From Rhizophagus irregularis (Eukaryota), in the NCBI RefSeq assembly GCF_026210795.1, contig NC_089429.1:2108001-2172000 (forward strand): a DNA stretch of 64,000 nucleotides, given 5' to 3'. Positions 4,061 through 28,928 of this stretch are shown piece after piece (position 1 is the stretch's first letter; every line of letters starts with the position of its first letter). The position numbers and the translations under genes were made by a program. The notes below the pieces were generated by a model. It saw only the letters and a program-made list of their open reading frames with translations, searched no databases and had not been told where the DNA came from.

Positions 4061-4064
4061 AATC

Positions 4065-4625
4065 CATCTCCTTTCGTTTTACCCTTCCCCTTTCATTTTA
4101 CCCTTTCATTTTACCCTTTCGTTTTATCCTTCCGTTTTACCCTTTCGTTTTACCCTTTCGTTTTCCCCTTTCTTTTCCATTTTCCTTTTCCTTTCGTTTT
4201 ACCCTATCCCTTTCGTTTTTAGCTTCCCTTTCGTTTTTAGCTTCCCTTTCGTTTTTAGCTTCCCCTTTCATTTTTAGCTTCCCCTTTTGTTTTTAGCTTC
4301 CCTTTCGTTTTTAGCTTCCCCTTTCGTTTTTAGCTTCCTCTTTCATTTTTAGCTTACCCTTTCGTTTTTAGCTTACCCTTTCATTTTTAGCTTCCCCTTT
4401 CGTTTTTAGCTTCTCCTTTCGTTTTTAGCTTCTCCTTTCGTTTTTAGCTTCCCCTTTCGTTTTTAGCTTCCCCTTTCATTTTTAGCTTCCCCTTTCATTT
4501 TTAGCTTCCCCTTTCGTTTTTAGCTTCCCCTTTCGTTTTTAGCTTCCCCTTTCATTTTTTCGCTTCCCCTTTCATTTTTCGCTTCCCCTCTCGTTTTCTC
4601 TTCCCCTTTCGTTTTCACTTCCTCT
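4065..4625. repeat. ~18-19 bp pyrimidine-rich minisatellite
   Basis: (TTCGTTTTTAGCTTCCCCT)n, more than 20 copies. Confidence 0.9.
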
Positions 4626-5364
4626 TGAAACCTATAAAAAAACAAGAACGGCTGGGAAACCGTTCTATAATATTAAAAAAAATCCACTATTCGTAATAAT
4701 ACTTATGAATCTCAGTCACGTCTTGGATCTACAAAAGCAAAAAACGAAAATGTTAGTAAAACGTTTCGTTAAAAAACAACAAAATAAAATTTGAAGGTAT
4801 ATATATACCTTCGAAATAGGAGTCCGGCCTTCTAAATGGGCGTCTTGGACCTACAAAAGAAAAAAAACTGAGGGACAAAGGGAAAGGGGAAAGGGGAAAA
4901 GAATAAGAAAAGTAAAGGGACGAAGGGAAGTGAAAGGGGGGAAAGAGGAACGAAGGGAAAGGGGAAGGGGAAGAAAGAAAATTAAAAAAAGTTTAAAAAA
5001 GAATGCAATAAGATGATCCTTTTTTAAACTTTTAATATGCGTAACGCATAATGCGTAACGTTTATTCAACAAGATTGAATATATGTCTAATCATAGATCA
5101 TTACTAATTGAAGTGGAATTTTTTAATTTTAGTCGAATATAGGCCAAATTGTATTAAGGCCGAATATTCCTTTTTCGACTAGTGTCATCCCTTGATTATT
5201 TTCTATGTACAAATCTGGTTATCAATGCAAATACAATTATGAATCTGATTGTTTATTATTCTGATTGTTTGTTATTAATCTATTTGAATCACTATTTAAA
5301 ATATAATAAATAACATATAATTTTTTTTTCTTTTTTTCTTTGACCTTTGTCGTATAATTTGAAA

Positions 5365-9231: not shown

Positions 9232-10678
9232 ATTGTCAAACGAAAAGAAAGAAAGAAAGAAAAGGGGGATACTGGAATTAGAAGTTACGCCATTTTATTT
9301 TTCATTTGTCAAACAAATATATTATAGTTTGATCGCTATATAAAAATGTTGTGCGACAAAATATCGGAACTACAAATACCGAAGCGATACAATCACGTGA
9401 CGACTTCCGGACGTTGAAATATGGTGGTGTCCCGAAAATTAAAACAGTCTACATAGAATTCATACAAGCTTCAATGTAGCACTAGCTTAGAGTTCTTGTG
9501 TTTTATAAGGAGTTTGCACTTATCTTTTTTTTTATTTTTTTTAGCTGTTTTTTTAATATTGTAAACGGGTAATTAATTTTTTGGCCTATAACCTTTTGTA
9601 TTGGAATTGGAGGTTTTGAGATTTCCGATAAAACGTTAGGTTAAATAAAGTTATTGCGTTGTTGTCATGAATTTTGGAAAAAAAAAAGTTATTAATCATA
9701 AACTAATAAAGTTAATATTATATTTTAAAGTATTTGTACATAAAAAAAAGGTGATCTTTTTATACTTTTTTTTAATATAAATATTTTTTTTTTTAAGCCT
9801 ATCAAAGTTATTTTTTGGTAAAGATTTTTGATAAATAATAGAATCTATTAAATTATTATTATTATTATTATTTTAATGGAGTTTTTTGATTTTTTTTTGA
9901 TATTAATTTGCTAAAAAATTTTTTTTTTTGGTAGATTTTATACTAGAAACCAACAATCCGTCGATTTCCTTCCTCTTATGTTCCGATATCCCATATAATG
10001 ACTTGTCAGTTTTGGTATTAAATCACATTGCGTAGTAAAATAATACTACAACTCAAGTACTTCACTTTTTAACATAGATATTATACATACTATCTTGATT
10101 AAATATAAATTCTGTTACATAAAAATTATCCTCCGTTTCGATGATTTTATTAATGTTATTTTTTCCTGTTTTTACAGAATTTTTCTTTATCGACTGATTT
10201 TAGTTTAGTGTAGGCGTATTACATAATCCGGCTAATCCGTTTATGGTTAAAATTTACAAATTTACAATGGTGCACATGCAAAGTCACGAGTTATGGCGTG
10301 CCGATATTCAAAATGATGTCCAATAATTTTTGACCTCATTTTTCTTTTTTCTTTTTTTTTTTTTATTTAAATTTTCAAGTTTGTTAATAAGTTCCTTAGT
10401 TCGGCAATTCTTATTAGCTATTTTTAGTATTCGTTTTAATAAATCTCGGAAATATTTATATAATTTTAGTTTAGTTGGCAAGCATTTTAGAAACTAGAAA
10501 ACTTTTTTCTTTGTTAGTAATATAAAAAAAAAATTTGCAAAAAGAAAAAAAATAGATTCACCTCCTTTAAAATTTGAATTTAAGGTGATTGAACTAGGAA
10601 CTAGGATTAAACGCAAAAAAAAAGAAAAAATACGAATATCCTGAAGAACAAGTCGAATTAAAATATTACATTATCATT

Positions 10679-11635
10679 ATGGTAAACGCTCAGGAATGGT
10701 TTGATGGAAAATACTCAACTGCTGAATCCAAAAGAGCAGTCGAAAGAATAGGTCCAAAAGAAGAGTTTAATAAAAGAATCGAAGACAATATAATTTCAAT
10801 ATTTGGCGGGGGTAGGCCTTTATCAACTCTTCTTCTCGGTATTGATGATATGAAAAGCAGAACACTCAATGAAAATATTAGTTTAGAAGGTTCTCTAACT
10901 TTAAAAGGATTCCTTAATTTAGAATTATTGGATATCAGTAACAAAAAAATTACTACATTAGACGTATCTGATTGTCCTCAACTCCGTGAATTGGATTGTT
11001 CTAATAATCAACTCACCAATTTGACCATATCTGGTTCAAATAAAATTGAAAAAATTCTTTGTGGTAATAACAGATTATCAAATTTAGATTTCTTAAAAAG
11101 TCAAAATCCTGCCAAATTAATTACCCTTCGCATGGACAACAACAATTTTCCTACTCAAAATTTGAAGTGTTTTACTCCTTTTATTAACTTACGTATATTA
11201 TGCATAAGTAACAATCCTTTTACTGGTTCTTTAAAACCATTAAGAAATTTATCTAGTTTAAAGGAAATAAATATCGCTGATACCAACATTGATGGTGGTT
11301 TAGAGTATTTACCTGATGAATTTTTTAACGTCAATGCCGTTGCTTCTGGCTTTAATTTTGGAAGAGGTCACTTTAATAGAAGACTTTTTTGTACTGGAAA
11401 CTTAGCTAAGCAATTAAGCGATTACAAAATCGAAGATGACTCCTATAGAAATTATGACTGGCAAGCCTGGAAGTTAGATAATCAAGAATTAATTAAAAAA
11501 GCTAGAGAAGAGATCGAAGTTAACGAACTTAACGAAGAATCAATTAAGTTGCAAGAATGGGAATCAATATCCAAAGAAATTAAAGAGTTATATGAACAAC
11601 TCCGATGTAATATTTATCTAAAAACTCATATCTGA
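10679..11635 (+). CDS. Leucine-rich repeat protein (MVNAQEW-type), intronless
   Basis: 318-aa ORF with LxxLDxSNNxLTxL repeats (LELLDISNKKITTL, LRELDCSNNQLTNL, LRILCISNNPFTGSLKPL) and a coiled C-terminus. Confidence 0.85.
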   Translation: MVNAQEWFDGKYSTAESKRAVERIGPKEEFNKRIEDNIISIFGGGRPLSTLLLGIDDMKSRTLNENISLEGSLTLKGFLNLELLDISNKKITTLDVSDCPQLRELDCSNNQLTNLTISGSNKIEKILCGNNRLSNLDFLKSQNPAKLITLRMDNNNFPTQNLKCFTPFINLRILCISNNPFTGSLKPLRNLSSLKEINIADTNIDGGLEYLPDEFFNVNAVASGFNFGRGHFNRRLFCTGNLAKQLSDYKIEDDSYRNYDWQAWKLDNQELIKKAREEIEVNELNEESIKLQEWESISKEIKELYEQLRCNIYLKTHI

Positions 11636-13399: not shown

Positions 13400-13608
13400 T
13401 CGCCTCTTTTCTCACCACAACTATAGTCTGTACATGACTTAATGGAGATAGGTGCTCCAAGAACACAAAATTATATTGAAACTTGGCATCGTCGCTGAAC
13501 GCTGGGTAACTTTAAGTTAATCGAACACTATACTATAGTTAATGAGTTTTAAAGGAGCAACAATAAGCAGAACTTAAAAGTTGAAAATATTCTTCGTGGT
13601 GCTCAATG
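13400..13608 (+). pseudogene. MULE (Mutator-like) transposase relic, 5' part; continues at 28098-28175
   Basis: Translates ...APRTQNYIETWHRR*..., resembling the MULE RTxNxxExWH motif. ENILRGAQC joins PKQKKNLI...RIMTIFND across the hAT insertion. Confidence 0.55.
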
Positions 13609-14471
13609 TAGGGATTGGAATCGATTCCCATTATTGGAATCGATTTTAAAATTGATTAATCGCGATTAATCGTTTCGCAAATATCGATTTTAAGATTCGA
13701 TTTTCGATTTTTGATAATCGAAACTAATCGAATTTATATTTCACAAAAAATACAAATTACGGTGCAAATTTATAATTATACTTAAAAGATTATTTATAAT
13801 AATAGAATTTTTTTAAAAGTAATATAATTTGAGAATGTCAAATTCACCGATCACACCCACGTTTTTGATTGGTTACGCGATTACGTCATCATCAATAAAT
13901 GTTTATTTGTTTATTATTTCTAGTACTTTCCCAACTTTAAACCCTTCGCTCAGCTGGTATGTTTTTCTTTTTTTTTCTTTTATTGTTTTTATATTTTATT
14001 TCTTGCTAACTTTATTTTATTCTCTTTAAGTTCTTACTCCTTTCAGTCTTTTGCTCTTTGCAATTAAGGTGTGTTTAGTATTACATAGTCACGATTTTTT
14101 GAAGTTTTTGTTTTTTTTTTATTTTGTCTCTTACACTTCGTTTCTTATATTTTGTTCCTTACATTTCCTTTCTAACTTTATTTTGTTTTCTTTTAGGTCC
14201 TTAGTTCTTCCCGGTGTGTTCTTTCTTTTATTTTTTTTTATTATTTTTTTTATTTTGTCTATCATATTTCGTTTATTTTATGGTTTTTATTTGGTCGGTT
14301 GGTTTCCTTCATTTTTTTATTCCCTACTATTTTTTTATCTTTTGTTTCCATTGTTACTTTTATTTCCTTAATTTTTCATTTCTTTTTCACTCCACTTCAT
14401 TTTTTTTCGTTCCTTTTCGCTTGTCCCTCGTTTCTTTCACTCCTTTTCACTCCCCGTGTTTTATATCGCGT

Positions 14472-15120
14472 TGTCACCCACGTCTGCCACCCGTGGATAA
14501 ACACATCTTTCTCATTTAACTTATTTCTCGTTACTTTGCTTGGTTTAGATTTTATTTTTCTTTTAACTTCTCGCTTTCTTTCTCATATATCCATAGTATT
14601 TATTCTCAATACTACCACTCATTCATAATATTCTCACAATATTATGTTGCCTGTAATATTTATTCTTTCAAATATTACCATCTTATTTCTTATAAACTGC
14701 GAGAGTTCTCCTAACTTCTTATATTTCATACAATAAAACGAGAATAACTCCTTTTACTTTTACTTTTCTGGACTTAATAATAATATTAATTAATTCTCAA
14801 GCGTACAATGAGCATATTCAAGATAACTTTTAATAATTAATATTTAATTTATTAAATTTGAGTCAAAACTGACTGCGGAATTCCTAACGAATCCCACCTA
14901 TATTTATACATTTTTAAGAAAACTATTTCTACCACTTCTAACTTTTCTACTAATAAAAATTTAAGAACAATAAGAAAATAAAGATATATTATCATATGAC
15001 TATCTTGTGACTAAACTAAACTAAACTATAAATATTATTTTATCGGTTAATTATTTATCCTTGTTCCATTCGGTCTTTTATTCATCCGCTCACGTGATCA
15101 TCCTGATTTCTCGGGTTACA
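14472..15120 (-). repeat. 3' LTR
   Basis: Direct repeat of 26647-27295; two G/A differences seen by eye. Confidence 0.97.
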
Positions 15121-15132
15121 GCTATCCCCCCC
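15121..15132 (-). promoter_or_regulatory. Polypurine tract
   Basis: Minus strand GGGGGGGATAGC immediately before the 3' LTR start TGTAAC. Confidence 0.8.
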
Positions 15133-15151
15133 AAGAAAAATTTGAGTCCCA

Positions 15152-16339
15152 TCAAATTCTAATTATAACTTCGAAATTTGACCTGTCAATATATTCCTTC
15201 AATAATTCTCCATTTACTGGCGTTTTCTGTATCCTTCCCTCCATAGTTTTAATTTTATAAGATCCTTTAGAAATTATTTCATGTATATAATACGGTCCTT
15301 TCCATTTTTCTTCTAGTTTTCCAGACCATTGTTTTTCTTTTGCTGCATCATAATATAGCACTTTATCCCCTATTTGAAAATTCTTTTTCATCTTGTATTT
15401 CTTATCATGATATTTCTTCTGTTTTTCTTGAGATTTCTCTATATTTTCTTTAGCTTGACTTCTAATGTTCGGTAGATCTTCCATTAAACTATTAATTCTT
15501 TGTGTTATCGTAACATTTTCATCTTCTAAATTTAATAATGTCTTCATTTCTCTTCCATATATTAGATATCCTGGTTTTAACTTGGTTGAATCATTCTTCT
15601 TTGTTCTATATGCAAATAAAACTCCCGGTATTTTTAAATCCCAATCTTTAATGTTATTCAATTTTGCTAATGATTCACATAATGTTTTGTTGAACCTTTC
15701 TATTAATCCATTCGTCTTCGGGTGATAAGGTGTCGAAAAATTGTGTTTTATCTGAAATTCCTTCATTAATAGTTCTACTAATTTATTATTAAAATGACTT
15801 CCCCTATCACTTAATATCTTCTTTGGACATCCATGTCTACATATTATATCTTCATAAATGAATCTTGCAATTTCCTTAGCATCTGCTGTTTCTAGAGCTC
15901 TAGCTTCTGGCCATTTCGTAAAATAATCCATTGCCGTAACTATGTATCTATTATTTCTTTCTGTTATTGGTAACGGTCCCACAACATCTATTCCAATCTG
16001 ATAAAATGGTTCTTTAACTTTTATTACATTTAATTCGTGTTTTCCAATCGGTTTTCCTCTCCTTTGACAACTATCGCATGATTTAACATATCTTTCCATA
16101 TCTTGTTTCATTCCTTTCCAATAATATTTCTCTCTAATCCTTTCATATGTTGCATCTATTCCAAAATGTCCAGATAGTTCATGGTCGTGTGCAATATACA
16201 TTAATCCTTCGAACTCATATTTTCTTATTACTCTCAGTTCTCTATTATCCTTTATTCTATATAACAAACCATCTTTCATCCTATAGTGTTGTTCATTATC
16301 TACATTTTTAATTATCTCATTATATTTATCTTCTTCCAT
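15152..16339 (-). CDS. Retroviral-type integrase, stand-alone ORF
   Basis: HHCC finger (AHDHELSGHFG...CDSCQ), DDE core (IDVVGP, SDRGSHF, IERFN), GPY/F motif (WKGPY); no chromodomain seen. Confidence 0.95.
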   Translation of the reverse strand: MEEDKYNEIIKNVDNEQHYRMKDGLLYRIKDNRELRVIRKYEFEGLMYIAHDHELSGHFGIDATYERIREKYYWKGMKQDMERYVKSCDSCQRRGKPIGKHELNVIKVKEPFYQIGIDVVGPLPITERNNRYIVTAMDYFTKWPEARALETADAKEIARFIYEDIICRHGCPKKILSDRGSHFNNKLVELLMKEFQIKHNFSTPYHPKTNGLIERFNKTLCESLAKLNNIKDWDLKIPGVLFAYRTKKNDSTKLKPGYLIYGREMKTLLNLEDENVTITQRINSLMEDLPNIRSQAKENIEKSQEKQKKYHDKKYKMKKNFQIGDKVLYYDAAKEKQWSGKLEEKWKGPYYIHEIISKGSYKIKTMEGRIQKTPVNGELLKEYIDRSNFEVIIRI

Positions 16340-16478
16340 TAGCTAGTATTTCTTCTATTTCTTCTTCAAAAGGTAAAATAAACCTAATACTTTTATCTTC
16401 AAATAACACGCAGTGATAATTCGTATTCCTGTGTATGATGTAAATATATATTCCTATTCCAATATTTTCAGTAGTCAT
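16326..16478 (-). CDS. 50-aa small ORF between kinase and integrase
   Basis: MTTENIGIGIYIYIIHRNTNYHCVLFEDKSIRFILPFEEEIEEILANGRR*; fills the gap exactly, starting 2 nt after the RT-kinase stop and overlapping the integrase ATG. Confidence 0.4.
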   Translation of the reverse strand: MTTENIGIGIYIYIIHRNTNYHCVLFEDKSIRFILPFEEEIEEILANGRR

Positions 16479-16480
16479 TT

Positions 16481-18802
16481 TTATTTTTCCAATAGCTTTT
16501 CAACTCGTTTATATACTTTTTTCCAACTTTTGTCATCGTTTTTAATTCTAATCCTCTTATATTTTCCTTTATTCTTATAAATATTCTGATGTTCTTTAAA
16601 CATTTTCACCATGTCCATATATTCCTCTTCGTTCAACGTTTCATATGATGTTTTATGTCCTTCATTACTTTTCTTAGTTTCTCTTCCAATATAATTATTC
16701 CAACATTCTTTATTTTCTAAGAAAATTATTACCGCATTATCTATAATGTCTTTATATTTAAATATCTCTTTCTCCATTTTATGATTCCCATATGGAGTAA
16801 TATATCCTCTGTCAAAACTTTTGGTCTTTTGATAAAAGTATTCACAATATGGTGACTTATCCAGTATTATAATGTCTTCATCTGTAAATTCAACTATTCT
16901 CCTATTGATTTCTTCTACAACTTGTTTTCTAAATAACCATTCATATTCTTTTGAAGGTTCCTCAAATCTCTTATCATCATTTCTTCTTCTTTTAAACTTA
17001 TTAAATATTATTTTTAAATCATCCTTTTCTTTTAATCGTTTAATTATATTTTCCACTATGGTGGATTTCCCTACACCATCAACCCCATCAACAATAATAA
17101 TCTGTGGTTTACTCTTCCTTCCTAATTTCTTTAATAATTCTTTTTCTGTCTTTTCTTCTAAGTTCAGTAATATTGCTTCTTTATCATTAAAATATTTCAT
17201 ATCATCCCATTTTCCCTTAAATCTTCTAGCGTCGAACCATTCATTTCCTGATCTAACATATCTCAGCTTTTTCTCTTTATTATGTTCCATTTTCATTATT
17301 TCTTGACTTAAGCCTCCAGGGTCCCTTTTTATAACTTTCTCTTCAAATTCTAGTCTTGATAACGCATCTGCATTCTTATTTTCTTTACCACTTCTATGTA
17401 TTACTTCAAAATCATATTGTTGTAACTCCATTACCCATCTTGCTCTTCTTCCTGTAGGTACTTTAGCATTCATTAATCCTTTTAACGCAGCATGATCCGT
17501 TATAACCGTAAATTTTCTTCCTGCTAAGAACTTATGGAAATACTTGATCCCCCAGAATATCGCTAAACATTCTAATTCTGTTATTGCATAATTCTTTTCT
17601 GCTCCCACTAAACTTCTACTAGCATAGGCGATAACAAATTCTTTATTTTCTTCATTTTTCTGAGATAATACTGCTCCTAACCCTTCTCCTGATGCGTCTG
17701 TAATCAATATAAACTCCTTTTCGAAATTAGGGTGATCTAATACTGGTTTCTCCATTAATCTTATTTTTAATTCTTCAAATGCTTCCTGCTGTTTCTCTGT
17801 CCATTCAAATGGTACATCCTTTTTAACTAAGTGATATAAAGGCTTTGCTATTTTCGCAAAATTCTTTATAAATCTTCTATAATATGAGCACAATCCTAAA
17901 AATGATCTCACTTGTGTAACAGTTTCTGGTATCTTTATTTCTTTAATCTTCTCCACTTTCTTTGCATCTGGTTTCAAACCATCTCTTCCAACTATATGTC
18001 CTAAAAATTCTATATTTCGTTCACCAAACTTACATTTCTTCAATTTCACAATCAAGTTGTTTTTCTTTAATTTGTTCAACACTTTATCGATATGTTCCAC
18101 ATGTTCTTCAAAATTTTTTGAATAAATCATTATATCATCTAGATATACTATTACAAATTCTCCAATATATTCTTTTAATATCTCATCCATTATCCTCTGA
18201 AATGTTCCTGGTGCATTCTTTAAACCAAATGGCATAACATTATATTCATATAATCCTTGTGAACATATAAATGCTGTCTTTTCTTTATCTTCTTCTACCA
18301 TTTCTACTTGATGATACCCTGCCGCTAGATCCAAACTCGTAAACCATCTCGCTGTTCTATATTTTTCTAATAATTCGTCTATTCTTGGTAATGGGTATGC
18401 ATCCGACTTAGTTATATTATTCAATTTCCTATAATCAATGCAAAATCTATAATTTCCTGTTTTCTTTCCTGCTAGTGTTACTGGAGACGCCCATGGACTC
18501 CATGACTTTCTAATTTTCCCCATTTTTAATAACTGTTCAACTTCTTTCTTTATAAACTTTCCCTTTTCCTCGGTCTCTTTATACCTCTTCTGTGCTATTG
18601 GTTCTTGACCTTCTTTAATTTCTATTTTATGTCTAACAGTGTCTACCTTTCCTAATTTTTCTCCATCGTATTCAAATATCTCTTCATAACTTTTGATTAG
18701 CTTTATTATACCATCCTTTCTTTTACCTGTTACTTCTCCCAAATTTATCTTTTTATCGAACTTTTCCCATTTAGTTTCATTTTTATCATTTTCATTTATC
18801 AT
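16481..18802 (-). CDS. Reverse transcriptase - RNase H - dNMP/thymidylate-kinase-like fusion
   Basis: RT (RFCIDYRKLN, MPFGLKNAP, YLDD) and RNase H (TDAS, ELECLA, TDH, NADALSR), then P-loop IIIVDGVDGVGKST and ILDKSPYCEYFYQ. Confidence 0.92.
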   Translation of the reverse strand: MINENDKNETKWEKFDKKINLGEVTGKRKDGIIKLIKSYEEIFEYDGEKLGKVDTVRHKIEIKEGQEPIAQKRYKETEEKGKFIKKEVEQLLKMGKIRKSWSPWASPVTLAGKKTGNYRFCIDYRKLNNITKSDAYPLPRIDELLEKYRTARWFTSLDLAAGYHQVEMVEEDKEKTAFICSQGLYEYNVMPFGLKNAPGTFQRIMDEILKEYIGEFVIVYLDDIMIYSKNFEEHVEHIDKVLNKLKKNNLIVKLKKCKFGERNIEFLGHIVGRDGLKPDAKKVEKIKEIKIPETVTQVRSFLGLCSYYRRFIKNFAKIAKPLYHLVKKDVPFEWTEKQQEAFEELKIRLMEKPVLDHPNFEKEFILITDASGEGLGAVLSQKNEENKEFVIAYASRSLVGAEKNYAITELECLAIFWGIKYFHKFLAGRKFTVITDHAALKGLMNAKVPTGRRARWVMELQQYDFEVIHRSGKENKNADALSRLEFEEKVIKRDPGGLSQEIMKMEHNKEKKLRYVRSGNEWFDARRFKGKWDDMKYFNDKEAILLNLEEKTEKELLKKLGRKSKPQIIIVDGVDGVGKSTIVENIIKRLKEKDDLKIIFNKFKRRRNDDKRFEEPSKEYEWLFRKQVVEEINRRIVEFTDEDIIILDKSPYCEYFYQKTKSFDRGYITPYGNHKMEKEIFKYKDIIDNAVIIFLENKECWNNYIGRETKKSNEGHKTSYETLNEEEYMDMVKMFKEHQNIYKNKGKYKRIRIKNDDKSWKKVYKRVEKLLEK

Positions 18803-18886
18803 TTTAAAATTTATTTATTATTTTATTTCTTATTATTATTTCAACAATTTTACATTTTAGGACAATTTTAACCCTTTTTATATAAT

Positions 18887-19522
18887 TTAATCCTCATTTT
18901 CACTAGATATTTCACTATCATCAGACGAGCTTTCTTCACTGGAACTTTCACTATCTTCTTGAGACTCATTTTCTTTTACTACTTCCTTTTCTTTTATTGC
19001 TTCTTTTACTGTATATAACTTCTTTCCTTCTTCTTGTTCATAATCAGATTCTCCTGATTCACTTTCATAGTCGGATTCTTCTGACTCTTCCACTTGTTTA
19101 ATATACCACACTGGTATGTCTATTATTTCTTCATCATTTTCTAATTCCAATATCTTTTCTTTATAGTTGATATTTGCATTCCATTTATCCAATAAATCAT
19201 TTCCTATAATCATTTCTTTTTGCTTTGAATCTATTACATCTAATGTTACTGGTAATACTAATTCTTTATAAACTTTTATTTCTGTATTCACTTTTCCTAA
19301 TGAAGCAATCTTTCCTCCATCTGCTAATGTACACGTAATATTACTTTTTCCTTTTATTGGTATATTTAACTCTTTTCTTAATTTCTCTGTTATTACACTT
19401 ATTGCTGCTCCTGAATCTATTACAACTTCGATTTCCTTATCATTTATTATAAACTGTGTTTTCATTGCCGTTGTAACTTCTTTTTCTCCACTTATTTCAG
19501 TCTTTTTCACCTCCGAGTGTAG
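18887..19522 (-). CDS. Retropepsin aspartic protease with acidic tail, in frame with Gag behind a single UGA
   Basis: VVIDSGAAIS active site and IIGNDLL; Gag TGA is followed by CTA CAC TCG GAG GTG AAA in the same frame. Confidence 0.9.
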   Translation of the reverse strand, partial: LHSEVKKTEISGEKEVTTAMKTQFIINDKEIEVVIDSGAAISVITEKLRKELNIPIKGKSNITCTLADGGKIASLGKVNTEIKVYKELVLPVTLDVIDSKQKEMIIGNDLLDKWNANINYKEKILELENDEEIIDIPVWYIKQVEESEESDYESESGESDYEQEEGKKLYTVKEAIKEKEVVKENESQEDSESSSEESSSDDSEISSENED

Positions 19523-22500
19523 TCACTCTGTTTTATCTCCTTTTCTTATCATTTTCTTTATCATTCTTCCTTGTTGTTCCACAATATTAAGTAGATTTCC
19601 ATAATCTACTGGATCTTTTGATTTAACTCCTATAATTTTATCTTCTCTTGGTCTACGTTTTCCCCCTGCTTCTTTCCATCTATTTATTCCTTCCATTGTG
19701 TCATAATATTCTCCTCTCTTTTTACTCCATTTATATCTTTTTGGGATATTCGTATTGTCTGGTCCTATTGGTCTATTATACATTGGTTGCTCATCCTCCA
19801 CATATTCTTCCATCGGAACTTCTCTTCTATTTCTATATTTATATTCTTCTTTCCCTCTTTCCTCAATCTCTTTGTCTAAATTTGGCTTTCCAAAATTTTT
19901 CCATCCTTGTTTAGGATTTATTCTATTACTTCTCCTTCTTTCTTGTACTGGGTTATCTTTTTCATACAAATCACGATTGTAATTATACAATTGTGGATCA
20001 TCATATTCATTATTTTCATAGTCGTAATCATCATCTGATTCTTCATTTTCGTAGTCATAATCTTCTTCATGGTCTTCTATATCCATTAAATTAACTCTTC
20101 TCTCATTTCTTCTGATATTATTTCCTAATGGACATCTAGTCGCAAAATGACCTCTTCTATTACACCTAAAACAAGTTATTTCATCATAATTAATCGGTGC
20201 TCCATTATTTCTCCTCTGATTCAATTGGTTTCTATTCCCATTATTATTCAACTCCCTTTCCATATTTCGTACTTGTTTTTCCAATTTGGCAATTCTCATT
20301 TTCTCTAATTTTTCCACTAAATCATCCTCATAATCTTCCTTTAACGGTTTGTTAAACTTATTTTCTTGTTCATTTCTTTTATCACTGTTTTGTCTAATAT
20401 CTTGAATATTATTATTCTGAATATTATTCTGATTCAACAAACTTTGATTCATCATACTTTGTATCATCATTTGATTTCCTGTCTCTATAATTTTAGCTCT
20501 TTCAACAGCTGCATCCAACGTCGCTGGTGCTGTTTCCATTACTCTTGATATCATAACTGGATTCAGTCCCTGAATAAAATAGTTAATTTTATACATTTCT
20601 CCTAAATCATTAACTCCTGGTGCTACTTTTCTTATTAACTTTCTGAATCTGCTTGCATATGCTCCTACTTTCTCATTCATTTCTTGTTTAATCGTTTGTA
20701 ACTCTCTAATCCATTGATTCTTTCTAACATCGCTTGCATAATGTTCCTTCAGTATTTTAGTAAAATCATTATTCCCATGGTTATGACCATTGTCCTCCCA
20801 TCTTTGTATATCTCCTTGTTTGCCTTCATACCAATCAGCTGCTTCTCCTCGCATGCATGCTGCTGCTTTTCTTATTTTATCTATTTGATTAGCTCCTTCT
20901 TGATAACCATTTGCGTTCCAAACAACCTCAAAATCTCTAATCCACTCATATGGATCTTGATCTCCTCCATAATATAATGGTAAATCTCCTACTTTCGCTG
21001 CTCTATTCACTGGTCCTGTCAAATTTCCAATTCTTGTTTCAACTTGATTAATTCTTCCAAATATCGTATTTGCTGGTGGAACTAAAGCATTCCAATTATT
21101 TCCTATATCATGTCCTAACATTATATTTCCAAATACTCTCAAATCTTCTCTGATGTGATTTCTTTCTGCCATATTCAATAATATATTCTCTTGAAATAAA
21201 TCCTGTAAATTATAATCAGATAGTTCACTTTCTGTATCAGAATTTTCAATATCAGAATCCCTAATATTCAACGAATTATTCGAATCTGAATTTTGACTTA
21301 AGTCAAAACCTCCTGTATTTATAACATTTTCATTATTATTTTCAACTTCATTTTCATTGAGGTCTTTAGAATTTCCTTCCCAAATCTCGTATTCTTCTGG
21401 ATCTAATATTTCTCCAATCTTTTCTGAATTATCTGTATCATCATTTTCTTCTTCAACTTCCTCTTCACTTTCTTCAATTTCAAATTTCTTTAAGTATTCA
21501 TCTAATATTCTCTTTATTTCTTTTTCCGATTCATTTTTATATTCTTGAAATTTTCTTATAAAGTCTGCACTTAATATATCAACATCTCTATATCCCATAC
21601 TCATTAATCTTAATAATTCTCCACCGGAAACTTCAATTTCTAAAACTTTGATTAGATTTTTTAACTGTTCTAACCTTTTCTCTATTTCTGTTTCATCATC
21701 CAATTCATTCTCATCTTTTACATTTTCTGGTCCTTTTTCATAACAATTTTTACATATCTTTTCTATAAATTCTTTATTGTATTCTACCGCTTCTATTGCT
21801 TCTTTCTTTAATATTATTTTATTGCACATTGGGCATTCTATCGTATACATATAATGCCATATTCTTAACTCTTCTTCTATTCTTTCGTCATCTAATTCTT
21901 CAATAGTTTTGTAAAAACTCATAAATTCTTTAGTCTTCATTATTTCATATTCCACTCTGAAATTTATTATTCGCCTTATCTCTTCAGTATCAATTTCATA
22001 ACCATTTTCTAACCAATAATTTCTATATATTCTCTCTATATGTTCATCTCCTTCATTCGAACTTGATTCTCCCAAATCATCTGAATTTTCCAGTTCTCCT
22101 ACATCACTTTGTTCTTCAACAAAACCTTTTGCTTCTACAATTTTCTTTATTATCTTATCTGTTATGTCATCATCTATCCATGGTTTCGGGTATTTATTTC
22201 CATCCCACCATTGATATGTTATACTTTTCTGAAACTTTCTGACTTTCTCTCTATTCTCTTCTTCTACTATATTTTCTTCTAAATGCAATATTTCCTTGAA
22301 ATATCTCATTGTGCTATATCCTTTGTTTTTAATGGTTATTGGTTCTGTTTTTTCTAACCATTCCTCAAATTTTGCGAATCTCATATCTAATTCATCATCT
22401 TCTATAATATATCTATATGTTAACAATTCCCTATTTCCTAATAAATTCTCTTCTGTTTGTTCCTCTAATATAAGTTCATTATCTTCATTCAGTATGTAAT

Positions 22501-22918
22501 GTTCACATATTACTTTTATTACTGATATAATTCCTATTTTTCTGTAGTCCGGTTTATTTCTATACCTTATTGATCTTACGACTACATCCAACAGTTTTTC
22601 TCCTTCTTTTCTCATTCTCTCAAATTCTTTATTTCTTTTCTTTTTACTAGATGGATAATTTTCTTCCCCATCCTTTCTTGTTAGTATTATGTATTCCATT
22701 AATTTCATATACGTATTTCTGTTATAACTCATTGCTTCTAATATTACTTTTTGAAAAATTTTCCAAAATCTTTTAAACCAATCTTCTATCTTTATTTCAT
22801 CAATACTATAACATTTCAGGCATGAAGGATCTACTTGATATTCCTTCCTCGATTCATTATGTTTTTCTATTTCGTGTCTATTTTTGATCTCTTCTAATTC
22901 ATCGTATATTTCAGACAT
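19523..22918 (-). CDS. Gag with ~580-aa N-terminal extension
   Basis: Capsid-like region (LPLYYGGDQDPYEWIRDF...MRGEAADWY...FIQGL) and CCHC knuckle CFRCNRRGHFATRC; the extension has CLKC and CPMC...CKNC motifs. Confidence 0.92.
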   Translation of the reverse strand: MSEIYDELEEIKNRHEIEKHNESRKEYQVDPSCLKCYSIDEIKIEDWFKRFWKIFQKVILEAMSYNRNTYMKLMEYIILTRKDGEENYPSSKKKRNKEFERMRKEGEKLLDVVVRSIRYRNKPDYRKIGIISVIKVICEHYILNEDNELILEEQTEENLLGNRELLTYRYIIEDDELDMRFAKFEEWLEKTEPITIKNKGYSTMRYFKEILHLEENIVEEENREKVRKFQKSITYQWWDGNKYPKPWIDDDITDKIIKKIVEAKGFVEEQSDVGELENSDDLGESSSNEGDEHIERIYRNYWLENGYEIDTEEIRRIINFRVEYEIMKTKEFMSFYKTIEELDDERIEEELRIWHYMYTIECPMCNKIILKKEAIEAVEYNKEFIEKICKNCYEKGPENVKDENELDDETEIEKRLEQLKNLIKVLEIEVSGGELLRLMSMGYRDVDILSADFIRKFQEYKNESEKEIKRILDEYLKKFEIEESEEEVEEENDDTDNSEKIGEILDPEEYEIWEGNSKDLNENEVENNNENVINTGGFDLSQNSDSNNSLNIRDSDIENSDTESELSDYNLQDLFQENILLNMAERNHIREDLRVFGNIMLGHDIGNNWNALVPPANTIFGRINQVETRIGNLTGPVNRAAKVGDLPLYYGGDQDPYEWIRDFEVVWNANGYQEGANQIDKIRKAAACMRGEAADWYEGKQGDIQRWEDNGHNHGNNDFTKILKEHYASDVRKNQWIRELQTIKQEMNEKVGAYASRFRKLIRKVAPGVNDLGEMYKINYFIQGLNPVMISRVMETAPATLDAAVERAKIIETGNQMMIQSMMNQSLLNQNNIQNNNIQDIRQNSDKRNEQENKFNKPLKEDYEDDLVEKLEKMRIAKLEKQVRNMERELNNNGNRNQLNQRRNNGAPINYDEITCFRCNRRGHFATRCPLGNNIRRNERRVNLMDIEDHEEDYDYENEESDDDYDYENNEYDDPQLYNYNRDLYEKDNPVQERRRSNRINPKQGWKNFGKPNLDKEIEERGKEEYKYRNRREVPMEEYVEDEQPMYNRPIGPDNTNIPKRYKWSKKRGEYYDTMEGINRWKEAGGKRRPREDKIIGVKSKDPVDYGNLLNIVEQQGRMIKKMIRKGDKTE

Positions 22919-23334
22919 CTTGATTTATTTTATTTACCTATTTACTTGCAAAATGATTTCATTTCATATTTCCCGTCTATTTATATTTTTATTCATATAG
23001 TATTTATTCGTTTATCATTTCAATCTTTATTTCTTTTATATTTTCATGTTTACAACTTTCTACTACATTTCTTTATTATATTTTATATCACATAGTATTC
23101 TATTACTTATAACTTGATATTCTTCCAACTTCATTAATTCCTAATTAGTTTAACGTCTTTCTGGACAACTATTTGTCTCTAAATTCTTATTATTTACATT
23201 TTTCCTGTATTTCCATCTTAACCGCTTGATTTCTTCACGCTTATTATTCTTCTTATGATATTCTTTTATTCCACCCATTATCTTCTAACGTCTTTTTGTA
23301 TATTTATTTCATCCTTTAATATTCATCTTATTCT

Positions 23335-23674
23335 TCAATTCCTATATTCTGTCTGTTCATAAATTTTCTGATTATTCCTGTATGCGGCTATTTTACATTC
23401 TCCCATTCGCAATATATTCATATTTTTGTGTTCACATCTTTCTTCATATTCATTAAGGTATCCCATTCCTTTTCGAAAGTATTCTTTACATAACGTTTCT
23501 ATTTTATTTCTTAAACTTTCTTCGCTTTCTTCCCTAACTTCAAAATAATTAATTTCTTGTAATGTTACATTCTCTATTTTTTTTTTTTTTTTTTTTGCAA
23601 TATTTACATTTTACTTCGCTGTCTATTCTAATAAAACCTTTTTCGTTTATATTTTCAAATATCATTGTTTTCAT
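23335..23674 (-). pseudogene. ~110-aa accessory ORF frameshifted in an A20 run
   Basis: MKTMIFENINEKGFIRIDSEVKCKYCK(A20)IENVTLQEINYFEVREESEESLRNKIETLCKEYFRKG...; open if the A-run changes by one base. Confidence 0.4.
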
Positions 23675-23761
23675 TTCCTGTATTTTACTCAGAATTTCTC
23701 ATTTATTATTATTTTATTTTGTCATTATCCATTTCCTTCTACTTTTATAATAATTGATTAC

Positions 23762-24022
23762 TTAGCTTCTATTGTCACTCGAATATCTATCAATTATTCT
23801 AAATTTTAAATTCAACCATTTGATCTCATTTTTATCCCAATCTGTAATACACATTCCTTCATTTTCAAACCATTATAACGCATTTCCTAACAAATGTGTC
23901 TTTGCAATCTTAAATATTCTTCTATCGTCTTTAATTCCTATCTTTGACAGATATTTTTCTACTTGATTTGTCCATTCTTTTGGATTTTCTCCTATTACAC
24001 CATAAAATATTGGTATTTCCAT
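23762..24022 (-). pseudogene. Second, miniature Gag-capsid-like ORF (86 codons) with one internal stop
   Basis: MEIPIFYGVIGENPKEWTNQVEKYL...IAKTHLLGNAL*WFENEG...WLNLKFRIIDRY parallels Gag LPLYYGGDQDPYEW...MRGEAADWYE; TAA at 23873-23875. Confidence 0.7.
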
Positions 24023-24168
24023 TTTAATCTTTTGTATTACTTCTTAAAATATATATACTTCACATTCTTTTCACGGTACAAATTTTGCCCTTTTTATAAC
24101 TTTATTTTAAACATTTCAAGGTTCTCAGACTTTAATCTCTATATTTTGACCTTTCATTCCTCTATTTC

Positions 24169-25080
24169 TTATCCTCTTATAAGATCTTCCGCTATTTCTG
24201 TTATTTCTTTCTTAGTACAACTATCTACTGATGTAATATCACAATTACTTTCGAATACTCTTTTCTTTCCTATCTTATTAACTAATAAACAAACTTTTTC
24301 TGCTTTTTCCATCATTCTTTTTAATCCTTTTCTTGTTCTTACTACATCTGTTTCCAACATTTCCTTATATATCTTTTCTCGTTCCTCTTTATCTGTTCTC
24401 CTTTTTCTATTTTTCCCTTTTCGCCTATTAATTTCTTGTTCTAATCTTTCTTCAAACCTTTTTCCTAGATAATAATGTATTTCCAATAACATCTGATTAT
24501 TCCTTCTCATTTTATGACATAATTGTAATAACGATAGTCCTCCATTCTCCTTTTCTAACATTTCTTCGTCAATATCTTCCTTCTTATGTTTTAATCTAAT
24601 CATTAAAACTTGGTAATTTTCTGATCTAACTATTTCTTCATTTTCTTCACTATCATCAGTTCCATTTTTCTCACTACTATTATCTTCTTCCTTTTCTCTA
24701 ACCTTATCATTCTTGTCATCTATTTCCATTAATTCTGATCTTTCTTCATCAGCTATTCCATCATTATTTATTTCATCTACTACTATATTATCATTATCAT
24801 TCTCATCATTACTTTTGTTATTCTCATCTTTTTCTATATTAAATTCTGACTCATCATTAACATTCCTATTTCCTGAACTATTATCACTTTCTTCTATCAT
24901 ATCTTCATCAAGTTCAATTTTTTCTTCGTTAAATATTCTTTCAGTAACTATCTCGCATGTGACAATCCAATTCTTTAGTCTCATGTCATTTTCATCATAA
25001 AATTCCACTTCAATACAATCATTTAGTTTTTCTTCAACTTTTCTCAATTCTCCTTTTGATATTTTAACTTTTAATTTCAT
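24169..25080 (-). CDS. Accessory ORF of the retroelement, unknown function
   Basis: 303 aa with an acidic low-complexity middle and a basic/helical C-terminus (RRKGKNRKRR); same strand as gag/pol. Confidence 0.75.
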   Translation of the reverse strand: MKLKVKISKGELRKVEEKLNDCIEVEFYDENDMRLKNWIVTCEIVTERIFNEEKIELDEDMIEESDNSSGNRNVNDESEFNIEKDENNKSNDENDNDNIVVDEINNDGIADEERSELMEIDDKNDKVREKEEDNSSEKNGTDDSEENEEIVRSENYQVLMIRLKHKKEDIDEEMLEKENGGLSLLQLCHKMRRNNQMLLEIHYYLGKRFEERLEQEINRRKGKNRKRRTDKEEREKIYKEMLETDVVRTRKGLKRMMEKAEKVCLLVNKIGKKRVFESNCDITSVDSCTKKEITEIAEDLIRG

Positions 25081-25834
25081 GATTTATTATTTCTTATTTA
25101 TTTATTATTTTATTAGTCAGTCGTCCCTGCCCAGGGGCAACTATATATATACTCCTAATTTGATATTTTCCTATTATTCTATTGGTTATTCATTCTTATT
25201 GTTCCATCAACCGTTCTCAGTATTTCATTAAATTCTTTATTTCTTTTATAATTCTTTATTTCTCAACTTCAATCTCCTTTTCTCTAATTATTTCTTTCGT
25301 TCTTTAATTCCTTTCTACTTTCTTTCTTAACTTTTCTCTTACTGTGCCCTATACCATTCACATGATCTGTATCACTCACGTGACTTGTATAACATTCCAA
25401 TTCTTTTACTGTGCCTTGTACTACTCACATGATCTGTATTACTCACGTGACTTGCCGCAGTATAATCTCATTTTATTCACTCACATTTGTAATCGAACTG
25501 AAGATCATAAGCCCAATTGTTCAAACACTTACCATTATACCAACAACATATAGTTGTTACATTTAAACCTTGGACTCATATTTAATTTTTATAACTCCAT
25601 TCTTACAACATCAAATATTCAACAATACTATTTCTTTTTATTTCATACTTGATACAATTCTTTTATTATACTTCTCATAATCATTAACATCATTCTTTCT
25701 TTTATTATAGCTGGATAGCCACGGATTTTTAAGCGATCAACTTACTAAAATTTCTGTTGACTAACGCCCCTGGTGACACAACTATTTTTATTCTCTTACT
25801 TGACCAGCAAGTTTCTTCAAAAATAAATTAATAT

Positions 25835-26060
25835 GAGGGTTTAACACCGCTTTACCCACAACGTACAATAATAATAATGGGGGTTTTACAGCTTTACCCG
25901 CAACTTAAAATAACAACAATGGAGGGTTTATTACAGTTTAACCCACAACTTGCAATCTAGAGGGTTTATTACAGATTTACCCACAACTTACATCTTATAA
26001 TCTCATAGTGTTTTTCAAGGTTCTCACTTAACCCTTGGGTTTATAGTTTACCCGTAACTT
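25835..26060. repeat. Five GGGTTT...TTTACCCRCAAC units in the element 5' leader
   Basis: Units begin near 25837, 25881, 25924, 25962 and 26037, with variable linkers. Confidence 0.75.
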
Positions 26061-26627
26061 TTTGCATTATTAACTTTTATTAGATTTACTTTCTTACCGT
26101 GAAATCTCAATACGGTCTTATTTTCTTTTATAGTCGATTATCGTGACTAACTTAACTCCAATAATTCTTATAGAATTATCTCCTTTTATTTCCAATAACC
26201 TATACTAGGCTTATCTCTACCTTCATATCGAAGTATGATAGTTTCTAGGTTTGTCATTAACAACTTTTCATTTCTTATTTATCAGGCTTATACATCGTCT
26301 AGTGTATTTCTTTCATTTCATGTTAGTCCTTTTTCATACTAACATACACTTCTTGTTAGTCCTTTTTCATACTAACATATACTTCTTTCAACTTCTTATA
26401 ATAAACTTCATAATTTCCTGATAAATCTCCTAATCACAAGCAATACACGCTTTGATTATCCTTCATTACTTGTACTTCTTTTATTTCTCATTGTACACTT
26501 AATAATTTTTTCTTTTTATACTCAAGTCCAGATCCTCCAGGAATACCATACAGGTACCTAACTATATGAAGATAGTCAGAATGATCATATTTCATTTCTT
26601 TTAATCTTTATTGATCATTTCCTTTCT

Positions 26628-26646
26628 CGAGAGCATTGCACCAAAT
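26628..26646 (-). promoter_or_regulatory. Primer-binding site candidate
   Basis: Minus strand ATT-TGGTGCAATGCTCTCG right after the 5' LTR; TGG complements tRNA CCA. Confidence 0.7.
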
Positions 26647-27295
26647 TGTCACCCACGTCTGCCACCCGTGGATAAACACATCTTTCTCATTTAACTTATT
26701 TCTCGTTACTTTGCTTGGTTTAGATTTTATTTTTCTTTTAACTTCTCGCTTTCTTTCTCATATATCCGTAGTATTTATTCTCAATACTACCACTCATTCA
26801 TAATATTCTCACAATATTATGTTGCCTGTAATATTTATTCTTTCAAATATTACCATCTTATTTCTTATAAACTGCGAGAGTTCTCCTAACTTCTTATATT
26901 TCATACAATAAAACGAGAATAACTCCTTTTACTTTTACTTTTCTGGACTTAATAATAATATTAATTAATTCTCAAGCGTACAATGAGCATATTCAAGATA
27001 ACTTTTAATAATTAATATTTAATTTATTAAATTTGAGTCAAAACTGACTGCGAAATTCCTAACGAATCCCACCTATATTTATACATTTTTAAGAAAACTA
27101 TTTCTACCACTTCTAACTTTTCTACTAATAAAAATTTAAGAACAATAAGAAAATAAAGATATATTATCATATGACTATCTTGTGACTAAACTAAACTAAA
27201 CTATAAATATTATTTTATCGGTTAATTATTTATCCTTGTTCCATTCGGTCTTTTATTCATCCGCTCACGTGATCATCCTGATTTCTCGGGTTACA
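26647..27295 (-). repeat. 5' LTR
   Basis: Direct repeat of 14472-15120; contains TATAAATA on the minus strand. Confidence 0.97.
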
Positions 27296-28928
27296 GCGTA
27301 TGCAAATGATTAGAAATTGACAGAGAAGTTGGCAAATTTTTTTCTGTCTTTAAGTGGGCTGAAAATATGTTATAAAGGCCTTCATTTTCTTTTGTTCCTT
27401 TCGCTTCCCTTCGTTTTTTTCATTCCTTTTCACTCCTTCATTTTTTTCGTTCCTTTTTATCCCCTTCGTTTTTTTCATCCCTTTTTCACCTCTCTTTTGC
27501 TTCTTTCATTTTTTTTACTCCACCTTTGTTTCTTTCATTACTTTTTATTCCTCTTCATTTATTTTGTTCTTCCCTTCACTTCTTTTGTTGATCTTCATTC
27601 ATTATTTTTTTCATTATATTTTGTTTCTTACTCTTCTTTTTGTTATTGCACATTCTCTTCGTTTTATTTTCATTATTTCTGTTATTTCCATAAATAAATA
27701 AATAAATAAAAATTGTTAATATTTATATTTTTAATCAATAAAACGTATCTTTAATTAATAAATTATTATTATTATCATTATAAACGTGTAAGTATTTAGT
27801 TTGCAAATAAAAATTTCATTACATTTTAAAAGTTACTTTAAAAAAAATTTTTGATATTTTGATTACAAATGATGTAATACATATTATTCTAACAAAGAGT
27901 TCGTCTGCTTCATCACGTAATGACGTAATACTTCCTTGTTTAATACTGCAAAATGCTAACTTGTGTCATTAATAAACATTTATTAACGATACTGCGCCAC
28001 AATAAATAGATTCGATTTTTATTCGATAATCGATTTAAAATCGATTCTTGTCGATTTTCGATAGATACGATTTTAATCGAATCTTTTCCAATCCCTAGCT
28101 CAATGTCCAAAGCAAAAGAAAAATTTAATTGGCAGGGAAACAGAATTATGACAATTTTTAATGATGGCAAAATAATTTTCTTTGTAAGTTCTTCATATTT
28201 TAGTTTAGTATTTTCAAAATTATGTTTGGTTTTAATGTCAAATGCAGTAAGACATTAATATTTTGCGAAGTGTTTTAAAAAATCATAATATATTATTAAC
28301 TTTATTAATTTTTAAAATAAAATTTTAATTTTTAAAAACTTTACATGTTAATTAAAAATGTTTTATTGATAGATATATTTTTACATAAATTACTGTGTTC
28401 TGAGACTTATCAAAATTACATATATTTCTTGTGATTACAAATTTAACATAACAAAATCTCAACTAGCCAAATAAATCTTTGAATTAACACAAGGATTTTG
28501 AGGTAAAGAATTTTTCCAATAAATTATATTATTTTTAGTAGATTTCTCAAATAATTTTTTTTTAATACTGTATTCAAAACTAATAAAATTTTAAACTTTA
28601 TAATATTAAATCTAATTTTTGTAATTATTTATTTATAGATATCAAGAAATTAACGCAATATTTTAATAATTTAATTATTTTCTATTATTTATTGCGTTAA
28701 TTATATCGAAAATTTTGCATAGTATGAGTAAAAATTGTAAATTCATCTATAAAGGCTACGTATAAATATTTTGTTTAATAAACGCGTATTTTTACGTATA
28801 AATTTTTCAAATATATATTTACATAATTAAATTTTATTGGCTAAAAAATTTTTGATCTTATAAATAAAAATCCGGCCATATGAAGCAATTTTCAGATATC
28901 GAGCTAAATAAGGCACATATTAATCGTG

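Follow-up and report, generated by a model that had tools for sequence, protein, structure and literature searches.

By the textbook account, LTR elements package and dose their reverse transcriptase (RT) and integrase (IN) through a covalent link with Gag. To our knowledge, foamy viruses are the known exception to this linkage, and they still make one Pol. The ICTV profile of the Metaviridae describes one pol gene with protease (PR), RT, RNase H (RH) and IN, translated as a polyprotein (PMC7879559). Here we describe a 12.8-kb LTR retrotransposon of the Ty3/Gypsy type from the root-symbiotic fungus Rhizophagus irregularis, in which PR, RT-RH and IN occupy three frames. It lies on the minus strand of the window, the whole 64,000-nucleotide stretch of DNA that was analysed, within the following boundaries.

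26647..27295, minus strand: 5' LTR, TGTAAC...GTGACA, 649 nt
14472..15120, minus strand: 3' LTR, 2 mismatches to the 5' LTR
27296..27299, plus strand: right target-site duplication, GCGT, 4 bp
14468..14471, plus strand: left target-site duplication, GCGT, 4 bp
26626..26643, minus strand: primer-binding site, first letters TGG, 3 nt past the 5' LTR
15122..15132, minus strand: polypurine tract

The LTR pair is identical at 647 of 649 positions, and an empty-site joint from 14467 to 27296, with 4 letters shared, is present in sequencing runs X7, X18 and X19. The element inserted recently, and its family is active and multi-copy. It has the two LTRs, primer-binding site and polypurine tract of the Metaviridae, a gag with capsid and nucleocapsid, and the domain order PR-RT-RH-IN; the single polyprotein pol gene is absent at the DNA level. 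Among the ORFs scanned there was no env family match and no single PR-RT-IN ORF. A tRNA gene search of the window found none. Along the element the order is ORF1, gag, UGA-CUA, PR, stop, 84 nt, RT-RH-kinase, UAA-AA-AUG, a 50-codon ORF and IN:

25098..25114, minus strand: A-rich word, 17 nt, shortly 5' of the ORF1 ATG; the same word precedes the RT ATG
24169..25080, minus strand: ORF1, 303 aa, also in sister copies (10-member cluster)
23762..24022, minus strand: additional frame of 86 codons resembling a capsid N-terminus, interrupted in this copy by one stop
19523..22918, minus strand: gag ORF, 1131 aa; N-terminal part of ~580 aa without known family, Ty3-type capsid, CCHC knuckle
19520..19525, minus strand: gag stop TGA, then CTA; PR continues in the same frame; likely readthrough site
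18887..19522, minus strand: aspartic protease, 211 codons, ending in an acidic tail; codon 20 is the first Met
18803..18886, minus strand: PR-RT spacer, 84 nt, 12% G+C, 7 stops in the RT frame
16481..18802, minus strand: RT-RNase H-kinase ORF, 773 aa, own ATG
16484..17110, minus strand: C-terminal P-loop domain (GVDGVGKS), predicted thymidylate/deoxynucleoside-kinase fold
16326..16478, minus strand: 50-codon ORF between RT and IN; begins 2 nt past the RT stop, as TAA-AA-ATG, and overlaps the start of IN
15152..16339, minus strand: integrase ORF, 395 aa, own ATG, with HHCC, D-D-E and GPY

An earlier sequence-only reading of this locus had reported LTRs differing at only 2 of 649 positions, catalytic motifs that were all intact, a PR stop followed by an 84-nt gap with in-frame stops before the RT ATG, and an IN with its own ATG and a TAG two codons upstream. 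All of this was confirmed by LTR comparison, by motif reading (PR DSGA; RT YLDD; RH D-E-D-D; IN HHCC, D-D-E and GPY; Gag CCHC) and by position: the PR stop is TAA 18889-18887, after the acidic tail, the gap of 7 stops is 18886-18803, the RT ATG is at 18802, and the IN ATG at 16339 has its TAG at 16345-16343. The same reading overlooked the single frame of gag and PR across TGA-CTA, the 50-codon ORF and a small ATG-TAA frame in the spacer at 18855-18850. It also missed the predicted kinase domain that follows RNase H in the RT frame.

No Pfam family matched ORF1, whose Atlas matches were all below 0.9; in 6 of the 10 proteins of its cluster the frame runs 5 codons further than here. The capsid-like frame likewise had no Pfam family, and it matched the Gag-containing P0044 at E 3e-9 and the element's own Gag at 29%. 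Gag itself matched the Ty3_capsid (E 1e-11) and Retrotrans_gag profiles. The leaders hold 42 AUGs before ORF1 and 33 before gag. Readthrough at UGA-CU(A) has been demonstrated in Ustilago and human cells (PMC4207609), and TGA-CTA occurs at 5 of the 366 TGA triplets of the element, the context having been read at the DNA level in this copy. Because PR is in frame with gag behind this known readthrough context, it is probably a readthrough extension of Gag and not an independent ORF, although many PR relatives start at a Met equivalent to codon 20, so that PR could initiate on its own. Pol thus probably has two real breaks and one leaky stop. The earlier claim of three independent pol ORFs holds for the RT and IN breaks and probably fails for PR.

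The RT ORF extends ~290 residues beyond RNase H, into the P-loop domain. The predicted structure of this domain (pLDDT 86) has a P-loop NMP-kinase fold, and Foldseek aligned the model to Giardia dAK (E 2e-6, TM 0.69) and to S. aureus TMK (E 3e-6). By Atlas it scored 0.96 to viral clusters, 17-19% of whose members carry PF02223; the domain itself reached 22 bits against PF02223, under the cut-off of 27, and a PDB sequence search with it gave a best E of 0.06 or worse. TMKs carry a DR motif, at the position of which this domain has DKS.

Within the PR-RT spacer, the A-rich 17-mer at 18827-18811 is identical to the word before the ORF1 ATG. Two matches stand against 0.11 expected, and the word is weak evidence because it is low-complexity. 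An open third frame across the spacer was not significant (p=0.1). The PR/RT break varies within the clade of IN-separate RTs. In sister subfamilies, 8 of 150 PR matches end in V[LF]A-x3-5-ER[HQRLP]; with junction DNA deduced from two protein frames, 4 of 5 RT starts tested could be the same DNA one frame over, 3 of which then give stop-NN-AUG.

The IN AUG lies 13 nt upstream of the stop of the 50-codon ORF. Of 2000 dinucleotide shuffles, 3 gave an ATG-led open frame as long as this ORF (p=0.0015). Locus L090 (52% RT identity), read at the DNA level, also has an RH stop, a 52-codon ORF and an IN AUG overlapping it; at L160 (52% IN identity) no ATG-led ORF lies ahead of IN. The sequence of the small ORF is not conserved, and it matched no Pfam family. 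In an X7 contig the TAG before the IN ATG is TAA, so the stop is kept and the AG is gone, and the small ORF is still open at the listed differences. The IN ORF had no Chromo match, and this chromovirus feature is absent.

Sister copies break at the same positions; copies and relatives were compared through protein clusters, metagenome calls and locus frames. A stand-alone PR of 192 aa is identical on 8 contigs, none of the 15 members listed of 28 in the RT cluster exceeds 773 aa, none of the 15 listed of 37 in the IN cluster exceeds 395 aa, and a sister RT and IN have the consecutive accessions GBC16654.1 and GBC16655.1. IN was fused to RT-RH in 0 of 42 metagenome-called near-full relatives (54-86% identity), 34 of which start RT-RH within ~40 residues of the element's Met. 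IN starts at the homologous Met in 102 of 119 relatives (54-93% identity; the pattern gave 107, and 5 false matches were taken out by eye). Among longer IN relatives the best fused forms had at most 47% identity, bar one NCBI model with RT in three pieces; in some NCBI gene models PR does run on into RT, or the kinase into IN. As a control, IN follows RH in the same frame in 78 of 98 more distant locus frames.

Scans of metagenomes and prokaryote genomes returned mostly ordinary Gypsy elements (33-50% identity), which served as controls, and two close loci, L087 (61%) and L090; scans of IMG/VR gave nothing close. Ten loci that looked split at first (L024, L029, L042, L046, L053, L057, L060, L066, L075 and L076) were rejected as a group, because the nine examined (all but L060) were decayed copies with scattered stops. 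In the RT tree, 41 IN-separate rows fall on one side of a branch with SH-aLRT 99 (quick search). The clade, the frames, their conservation and the kinase fold are what the analysis shows, and as far as the sequences tell, separate reading frames are the state of most near relatives. The earlier views that the split is not decay and that the lineage is distinct are therefore upheld, with breaks shared by sister copies and by relatives down to ~54% identity and with no continuous pol seen in any close relative. The RT phylogeny, built from unnamed Gypsy-type RTs, places the element in a clade of its own among them.

Because separate frames are kept in most near relatives, RT-RH-kinase and IN are likely free proteins made from their own AUGs. 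The reading that we favour, with confidence a little short of even, is that each initiates at an AUG of its own, in the case of IN through stop-restart coupling, and reaches the RNA or particle non-covalently. A minority of ribosomes would pass UGA-CUA to make Gag-PR, which would process Gag, and an A-rich leader would precede the AUG at which RT-RH-kinase initiates. Ribosomes finishing RT would resume 2 nt on, at the 50-codon ORF, and from there reach the IN AUG by a further restart or by leakage, in a coupling like that of victoriviruses. Free RT and IN would attach to genomic RNA or Gag as foamy-virus Pol does, and the kinase would help to provide dNTPs for reverse transcription. The earlier inference that RT and IN need another route into the particle is one possibility: rare splicing may occur, and IN may encounter the cDNA elsewhere than in the particle. 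Victorivirus stop-restart sites have the form AUGA, AUGnnUAG or UAGnnAUG, and in RSV M2 restart occurs up to 29 nt upstream of the stop (both from an excerpt of PMC3542737). No UGGGA TURBS motif was found within 120 nt upstream of any of four stops, and no junction folding was more stable than shuffles. At PR/RT the 84 nt between stop and AUG exceed what tight coupling would allow, and an RT coupled to a rare readthrough product would be made in very small amounts, which counts against coupling there.

Free RT and IN could instead come from separate mRNAs, through internal promoters or spliced leaders, as for foamy-virus Pol, a possibility that we hold as somewhat less likely. The 42 and 33 leader AUGs rule out plain scanning, so that internal entry or shorter RNAs would be needed in any case, and this speaks for such mRNAs; the 17-nt word shared by the ORF1 and RT ATGs, AG dinucleotides near the gag, ORF1 and IN ATGs, and the spliced mRNA that gives foamy Pol (excerpt of PMC3705302) point the same way. 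However, the word is of low complexity, the AG adjoining the IN ATG is gone in the X7 contig, and the tight stop/start geometry (UAA-AA-AUG and the overlapping IN AUG, L090, the sister PR/RT junctions) is left unexplained. Partial splicing of the Ogre kind, dropping the spacers and restoring a Gag-PR-RT-IN polyprotein, appears improbable. In-frame GT..AG pairs do exist, such as GTATAT 16516 to TAG 16343 (174 nt), and several NCBI models have PR and RT, or the kinase and IN, as one protein. But each of the 38 in-frame PR-to-RT pairs has as its acceptor AAG or GAG, or in one case CAG, within the RT coding start, in purine-rich context, and deletes 14-34 RT residues; the sole YAG acceptor for an in-frame RT-to-IN join is missing in a sister contig; the NCBI joins are inconsistent between near-identical copies and in some cases remove catalytic cores; and the conserved IN start Met would be unnecessary. 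None of the 15 joints listed of 22 in four runs has CT..AC ends, a result that is neutral on splicing, as these runs are contigs and cover is thin in three of them.

Programmed frameshifting or hopping that rejoins the frames, at least PR-RT in sister subfamilies (re-pairing of the P-site Glu tRNA, GAG-AGA-C), is more improbable still. It would fit the cleavage-like V[LF]A or YLA that stand-alone PR relatives keep a few residues before the stop, as PR-RT-joined relatives do before RT, and the finding of only C-starting codons after ER in the 8 V[LF]A cases. Here it is impossible, as the RT frame has stops five and six codons ahead of the RT ATG, the IN frame has one two codons ahead of its own ATG, and the element lacks the motif; the sister evidence is itself deduced DNA. 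That the copy is decayed or non-autonomous, its breaks being mutations, is scarcely credible: the likely fresh stops in accessory frames (the shortened ORF1, the capsid-like frame) suit it, whereas the near-identical LTRs, the breaks shared far into the relatives, the intact motifs in long open frames and the lack of any fused form among close relatives oppose it.

Neither this layout nor an LTR element carrying a kinase was described in the literature searched, which excluded Repbase reports, subscription journals and supplements. A family that is active and multi-copy, and whose RT and IN are likely free, opens to test how such enzymes reach RNA when they are not fused to Gag, whether IN has to be inside the particle, and what relationship integrase-only transposons have with Gypsy elements. 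To TE pipelines split elements seem defective, and gene callers bridge the gaps with introns. Among nucleotide-supply passengers of retrotransposons, the predicted kinase would form a new type. More speculatively, and in our view doubtfully, this soil-fungal LTR clade may have a polycistronic pol, with free RT and IN linked by stop-restart, the RH-IN gap taking in passengers, of which a virus-like nucleotide kinase is one, and free IN acting on cDNA as a Ginger-type transposase, which would make the clade a present-day link from integrase-only DNA transposons to Gypsy elements.

Compared with known systems, the element shares with Metaviridae/Ty3-Gypsy its LTRs, primer-binding site, polypurine tract, Ty3-type capsid with CCHC, PR-RT-RH-IN order and GPY integrase, and differs in its three frames and in the kinase and small ORF between RH and IN. 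In Ogre, of the plant Tat clade, the extra ORF sits upstream of gag, as it does here. Ogre has one or two such ORFs (excerpt of PMC6431247), and a non-coding spacer parts its Gag-PR frame from RT; in contrast to our element, its RT-RH-IN is joined and the spacer, 274 bp on average, is a spliced intron (excerpt of PMC6317226). Here the spacer has only poor in-frame acceptors, IN is separate, and RH is followed by a kinase and not by the second RNase H of an RT-RH-aRH-IN ORF. In foamy viruses, as may hold here, Pol enzymes without Gag need non-covalent packaging through genomic RNA and Gag contacts, but there a spliced mRNA yields a single PR-RT-IN precursor, of which neither PR-RT nor IN enters the particle by itself (excerpt of PMC3705302); in the element PR probably stays with Gag, RT and IN are apart, and the Spumaretrovirinae features of a single PR-RT-IN Pol and env are absent. 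Stop-restart in victorivirus HvV190S and reinitiation in Caulimovirus yield, as is likely here, a free polymerase from consecutive ORFs with stop and start close together (excerpt of PMC3542737), in unrelated virus groups, and no upstream element or TAV-like factor has been identified here.

Ginger1 DNA transposons resemble the element in a free-standing Gypsy-type integrase of ~400 aa with HHCC, DDE and GPY, a 4-bp target-site duplication and TGTNR ends (excerpt of PMC2836005), and longer IN relatives start with a Y..P..F..Y stretch that by eye resembles YPYY. Ginger1, unlike the element with its LTRs and RT, is bounded by TIRs without RT, and has CCGG/CCGT targets and C-terminal protease domains (same excerpt). 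Fungal Gypsy elements bearing a dUTPase also carry a nucleotide-metabolism enzyme within pol (excerpt of PMC2864245), whereas the passenger here is a predicted P-loop thymidylate/deoxynucleoside-kinase fold placed after RNase H.

The element occupies 27295 to 14472 of the window on the minus strand, including its two 649-nt LTRs, which differ from each other at 2 positions and have TGT...ACA termini; GCGT stands on either side. The PBS, of TGG type, and the G-rich PPT were present in the expected places. The empty site, a joint of 14467 to 27296 with 4 shared letters, was seen in three of the four sequencing runs compared, and near-identical proteins in the databases carry the source label Rhizophagus irregularis. 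All coordinates of the sequence-only reading were correct, and every catalytic motif that it had called intact was found. The layout, in element order, was as follows:

ORF1, minus strand, 303 aa, first in the element
Capsid-like frame with one internal stop, after ORF1 and before gag
gag, 1131 aa, after the capsid-like frame
Protease (PR), behind the gag stop TGA-CTA, in the same frame as gag
PR-RT spacer, 84 nt
Reverse transcriptase, RNase H and kinase (RT-RH-kinase) ORF, 773 aa, then TAA-AA-ATG
Small ORF, 50 codons, opening at TAA-AA-ATG and preceding the integrase
Integrase (IN), 395 aa, own ATG 13 nt upstream of the small ORF stop

The Gag N-terminal extension (21175-22918, minus strand, about 580 aa) matched no Pfam family, and the alignment with Gag models of related families begins no earlier than about residue 583. 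The capsid-like frame upstream of gag (23762-24022, minus strand) covers the capsid N-terminal part only and resembles the Gag of another family more than that of the element itself. Truncated Ty1 Gag is a copy-number inhibitor; by analogy, this frame could be such an inhibitor, or a relic. On either side of the element lie inverted repeats, 84-116 nt long and related to one another (13608-13691, 27982-28097, 38390-38505 and 38735-38818), which suggests that its position is among or inside other transposons. The window also holds a dispersed repeat of 84-87% identity and tandem arrays whose units measure 54 nt and 19 nt (1542-2633, 4063-4642, 8152-9234 versus 60085-61176), as well as a leucine-rich-repeat-like frame, judged by eye, upstream of the insertion (10598-11635, plus strand).

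The split of pol, which the sequence-only reading had thought unlikely to be decay, is real, conserved and unusual. Among sister copies, defined as members of 90% clusters, an identical stand-alone PR occurred on eight contigs; none of the 15 RT members listed (of 28) exceeded 773 aa, and none of the 15 IN members listed (of 37) exceeded 395 aa, eight having exactly that length. Among the 120 of 1210 RT matches listed (lengths 425-1353 searched), IN was found on 0 of 72 near-full RT-RH proteins. Outside that filtered set, IN is fused to the kinase or to RT in five NCBI models (P0025, P0032, P0033, P0055 and P0084), whose junctions differ. Metagenome gene calls, which we take to be intron-blind, made up 48 of the RT matches listed; of the 42 near-full ones, none contains IN, 34 start near the element's RT Met, and the other eight reach further upstream, as far as PR or in its direction. 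The IN search (lengths 217-692) gave 119 new matches, 102 of which start at the homologous Met. Among longer IN relatives (120 of 682 matches listed; a blank in this search is weak evidence), P0055 reached 56% and all others at most 47%. As a control, IN stood in the RT frame in 78 of 98 distant locus frames. In the contig of locus L090, as in the element, a stop ends the RH frame and is followed by a small ORF that IN overlaps; at locus L160 IN is separate, but no ATG-led ORF lies ahead of it. Integrase-only proteins P0252-P0259 (714-722 aa, 37-38% to the element's IN, some labelled Rhizopus) are possibly Ginger-like.

RT-RH sequences were placed in two trees, a FastTree of 248 rows and a smaller one from the IQ-TREE quick search. 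The smaller tree was built on 61 chosen rows, namely 20 outgroups, 38 metagenome-called proteins, P0120, L090 and the window element, and left out NCBI models of the ingroup. Both trees were rooted at midpoint, with ingroup and outgroup from separate searches and rows without named Gypsy clades. All IN-separate rows formed one group in both (support 0.997 in FastTree, SH-aLRT 99 in IQ-TREE). The basal branches are among the PR-joined forms, and at least two changes of the PR/RT state occur. The break between RH and IN is therefore likely old, and that between PR and RT labile and of later date. One basal subclade (P0102, P0105, P0116, P0118, P0120; L087) has about 250-300 aa behind RNase H, a tail that includes a conserved His/Cys-rich stretch, and no IN; the P0120 tail matched no Pfam family.

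The domain C-terminal to RNase H (16484-17110, minus strand) contains the P-loop GVDGVGKS. Its score against Pfam thymidylate kinase was under the cut-off; its fold was predicted confidently (pLDDT 86) and in structure comparison resembles thymidylate and deoxynucleoside kinases. The closest Atlas clusters are viral, which is no proof of origin. In the RT trees, kinase-bearing RTs are spread over several branches, interleaved with kinase-less relatives, and a linker of about 80 aa is present or absent, which suggests repeated loss or gain.

At the gag/PR junction, the UGA-CUA context occurs at only 5 of the element's 366 TGA triplets; PMC4207609 describes it as promoting readthrough in Ustilago and human cells. 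Gene models of the 91% and 67% relatives omit the stretch around this stop, which is consistent with a shared stop. PR translation may instead start at Met20. Recoding from PR to RT is excluded in the window element by the stops that lie just ahead of the RT ATG, and in-frame PR-to-RT splice acceptors are poor. NCBI models joining PR to RT in sister families leave out the PR tail, which other gene calls (P0456, P0366) show ending in a stop. In sister subfamilies, PR ends and RT starts imply, at the protein level, stop-NN-AUG, the geometry of the element's RT stop. PR ends and RT starts of the sister proteins (P0363, P0364, P0368, P0372, P0383, P0386, P0393 and P0440 set against P0042, P0055, P0056 and P0082) point to a fixed motif about 30 nt long, with GAG-AGA-C-NN-TAA-AR-ATG at its end. 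It is a candidate signal for restart or frameshifting and is absent from the window element.

Taking stop-restart translation and separate mRNAs jointly, RT and IN are quite probably free proteins; the route is less certain. The RT/IN junction combines UAA-AA-AUG with an IN AUG shortly upstream of the small ORF stop, and known restart geometries include both types (PMC3542737). The small ORF is longer than expected by chance (p=0.0015) and contains two AUGs only, its own and that of IN, with about 3 per 100 nt in other ORFs. A contig from sequencing run X7 has lost the AG ahead of the IN ATG and kept the stop. Two observations speak against stop-restart: the element's junctions showed neither a TURBS motif nor a structure, and the AUG-rich leaders show a need for internal entry or shorter RNAs anyway. 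In the proposed stop-restart model, a minority of ribosomes would read through UGA-CUA from gag into PR, and those finishing RT would restart at UAA-AA-AUG and then reach the IN AUG, which overlaps the small ORF end, by restart or leakage. Free RT and IN might be packaged in a way analogous to foamy-virus Pol (PMC3705302).

No published description of this layout was found in the literature searched outside supplements and Repbase, and it is absent from the available portions of PMC8647823, PMC11075540, PMC3248453, PMC6431247, PMC13468544, PMC10224137 and PMC5911963. The element has one feature in common with each of Ogre (PMC6317226), foamy viruses (PMC3705302), victoriviruses (PMC3542737), Ginger1 (PMC2836005) and dUTPase-bearing elements (PMC2864245). 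It works like Ty3/Gypsy retrotransposons, but its pol is not the single gene of the ICTV Metaviridae profile (PMC7879559), and it is therefore filed as Metaviridae-like.
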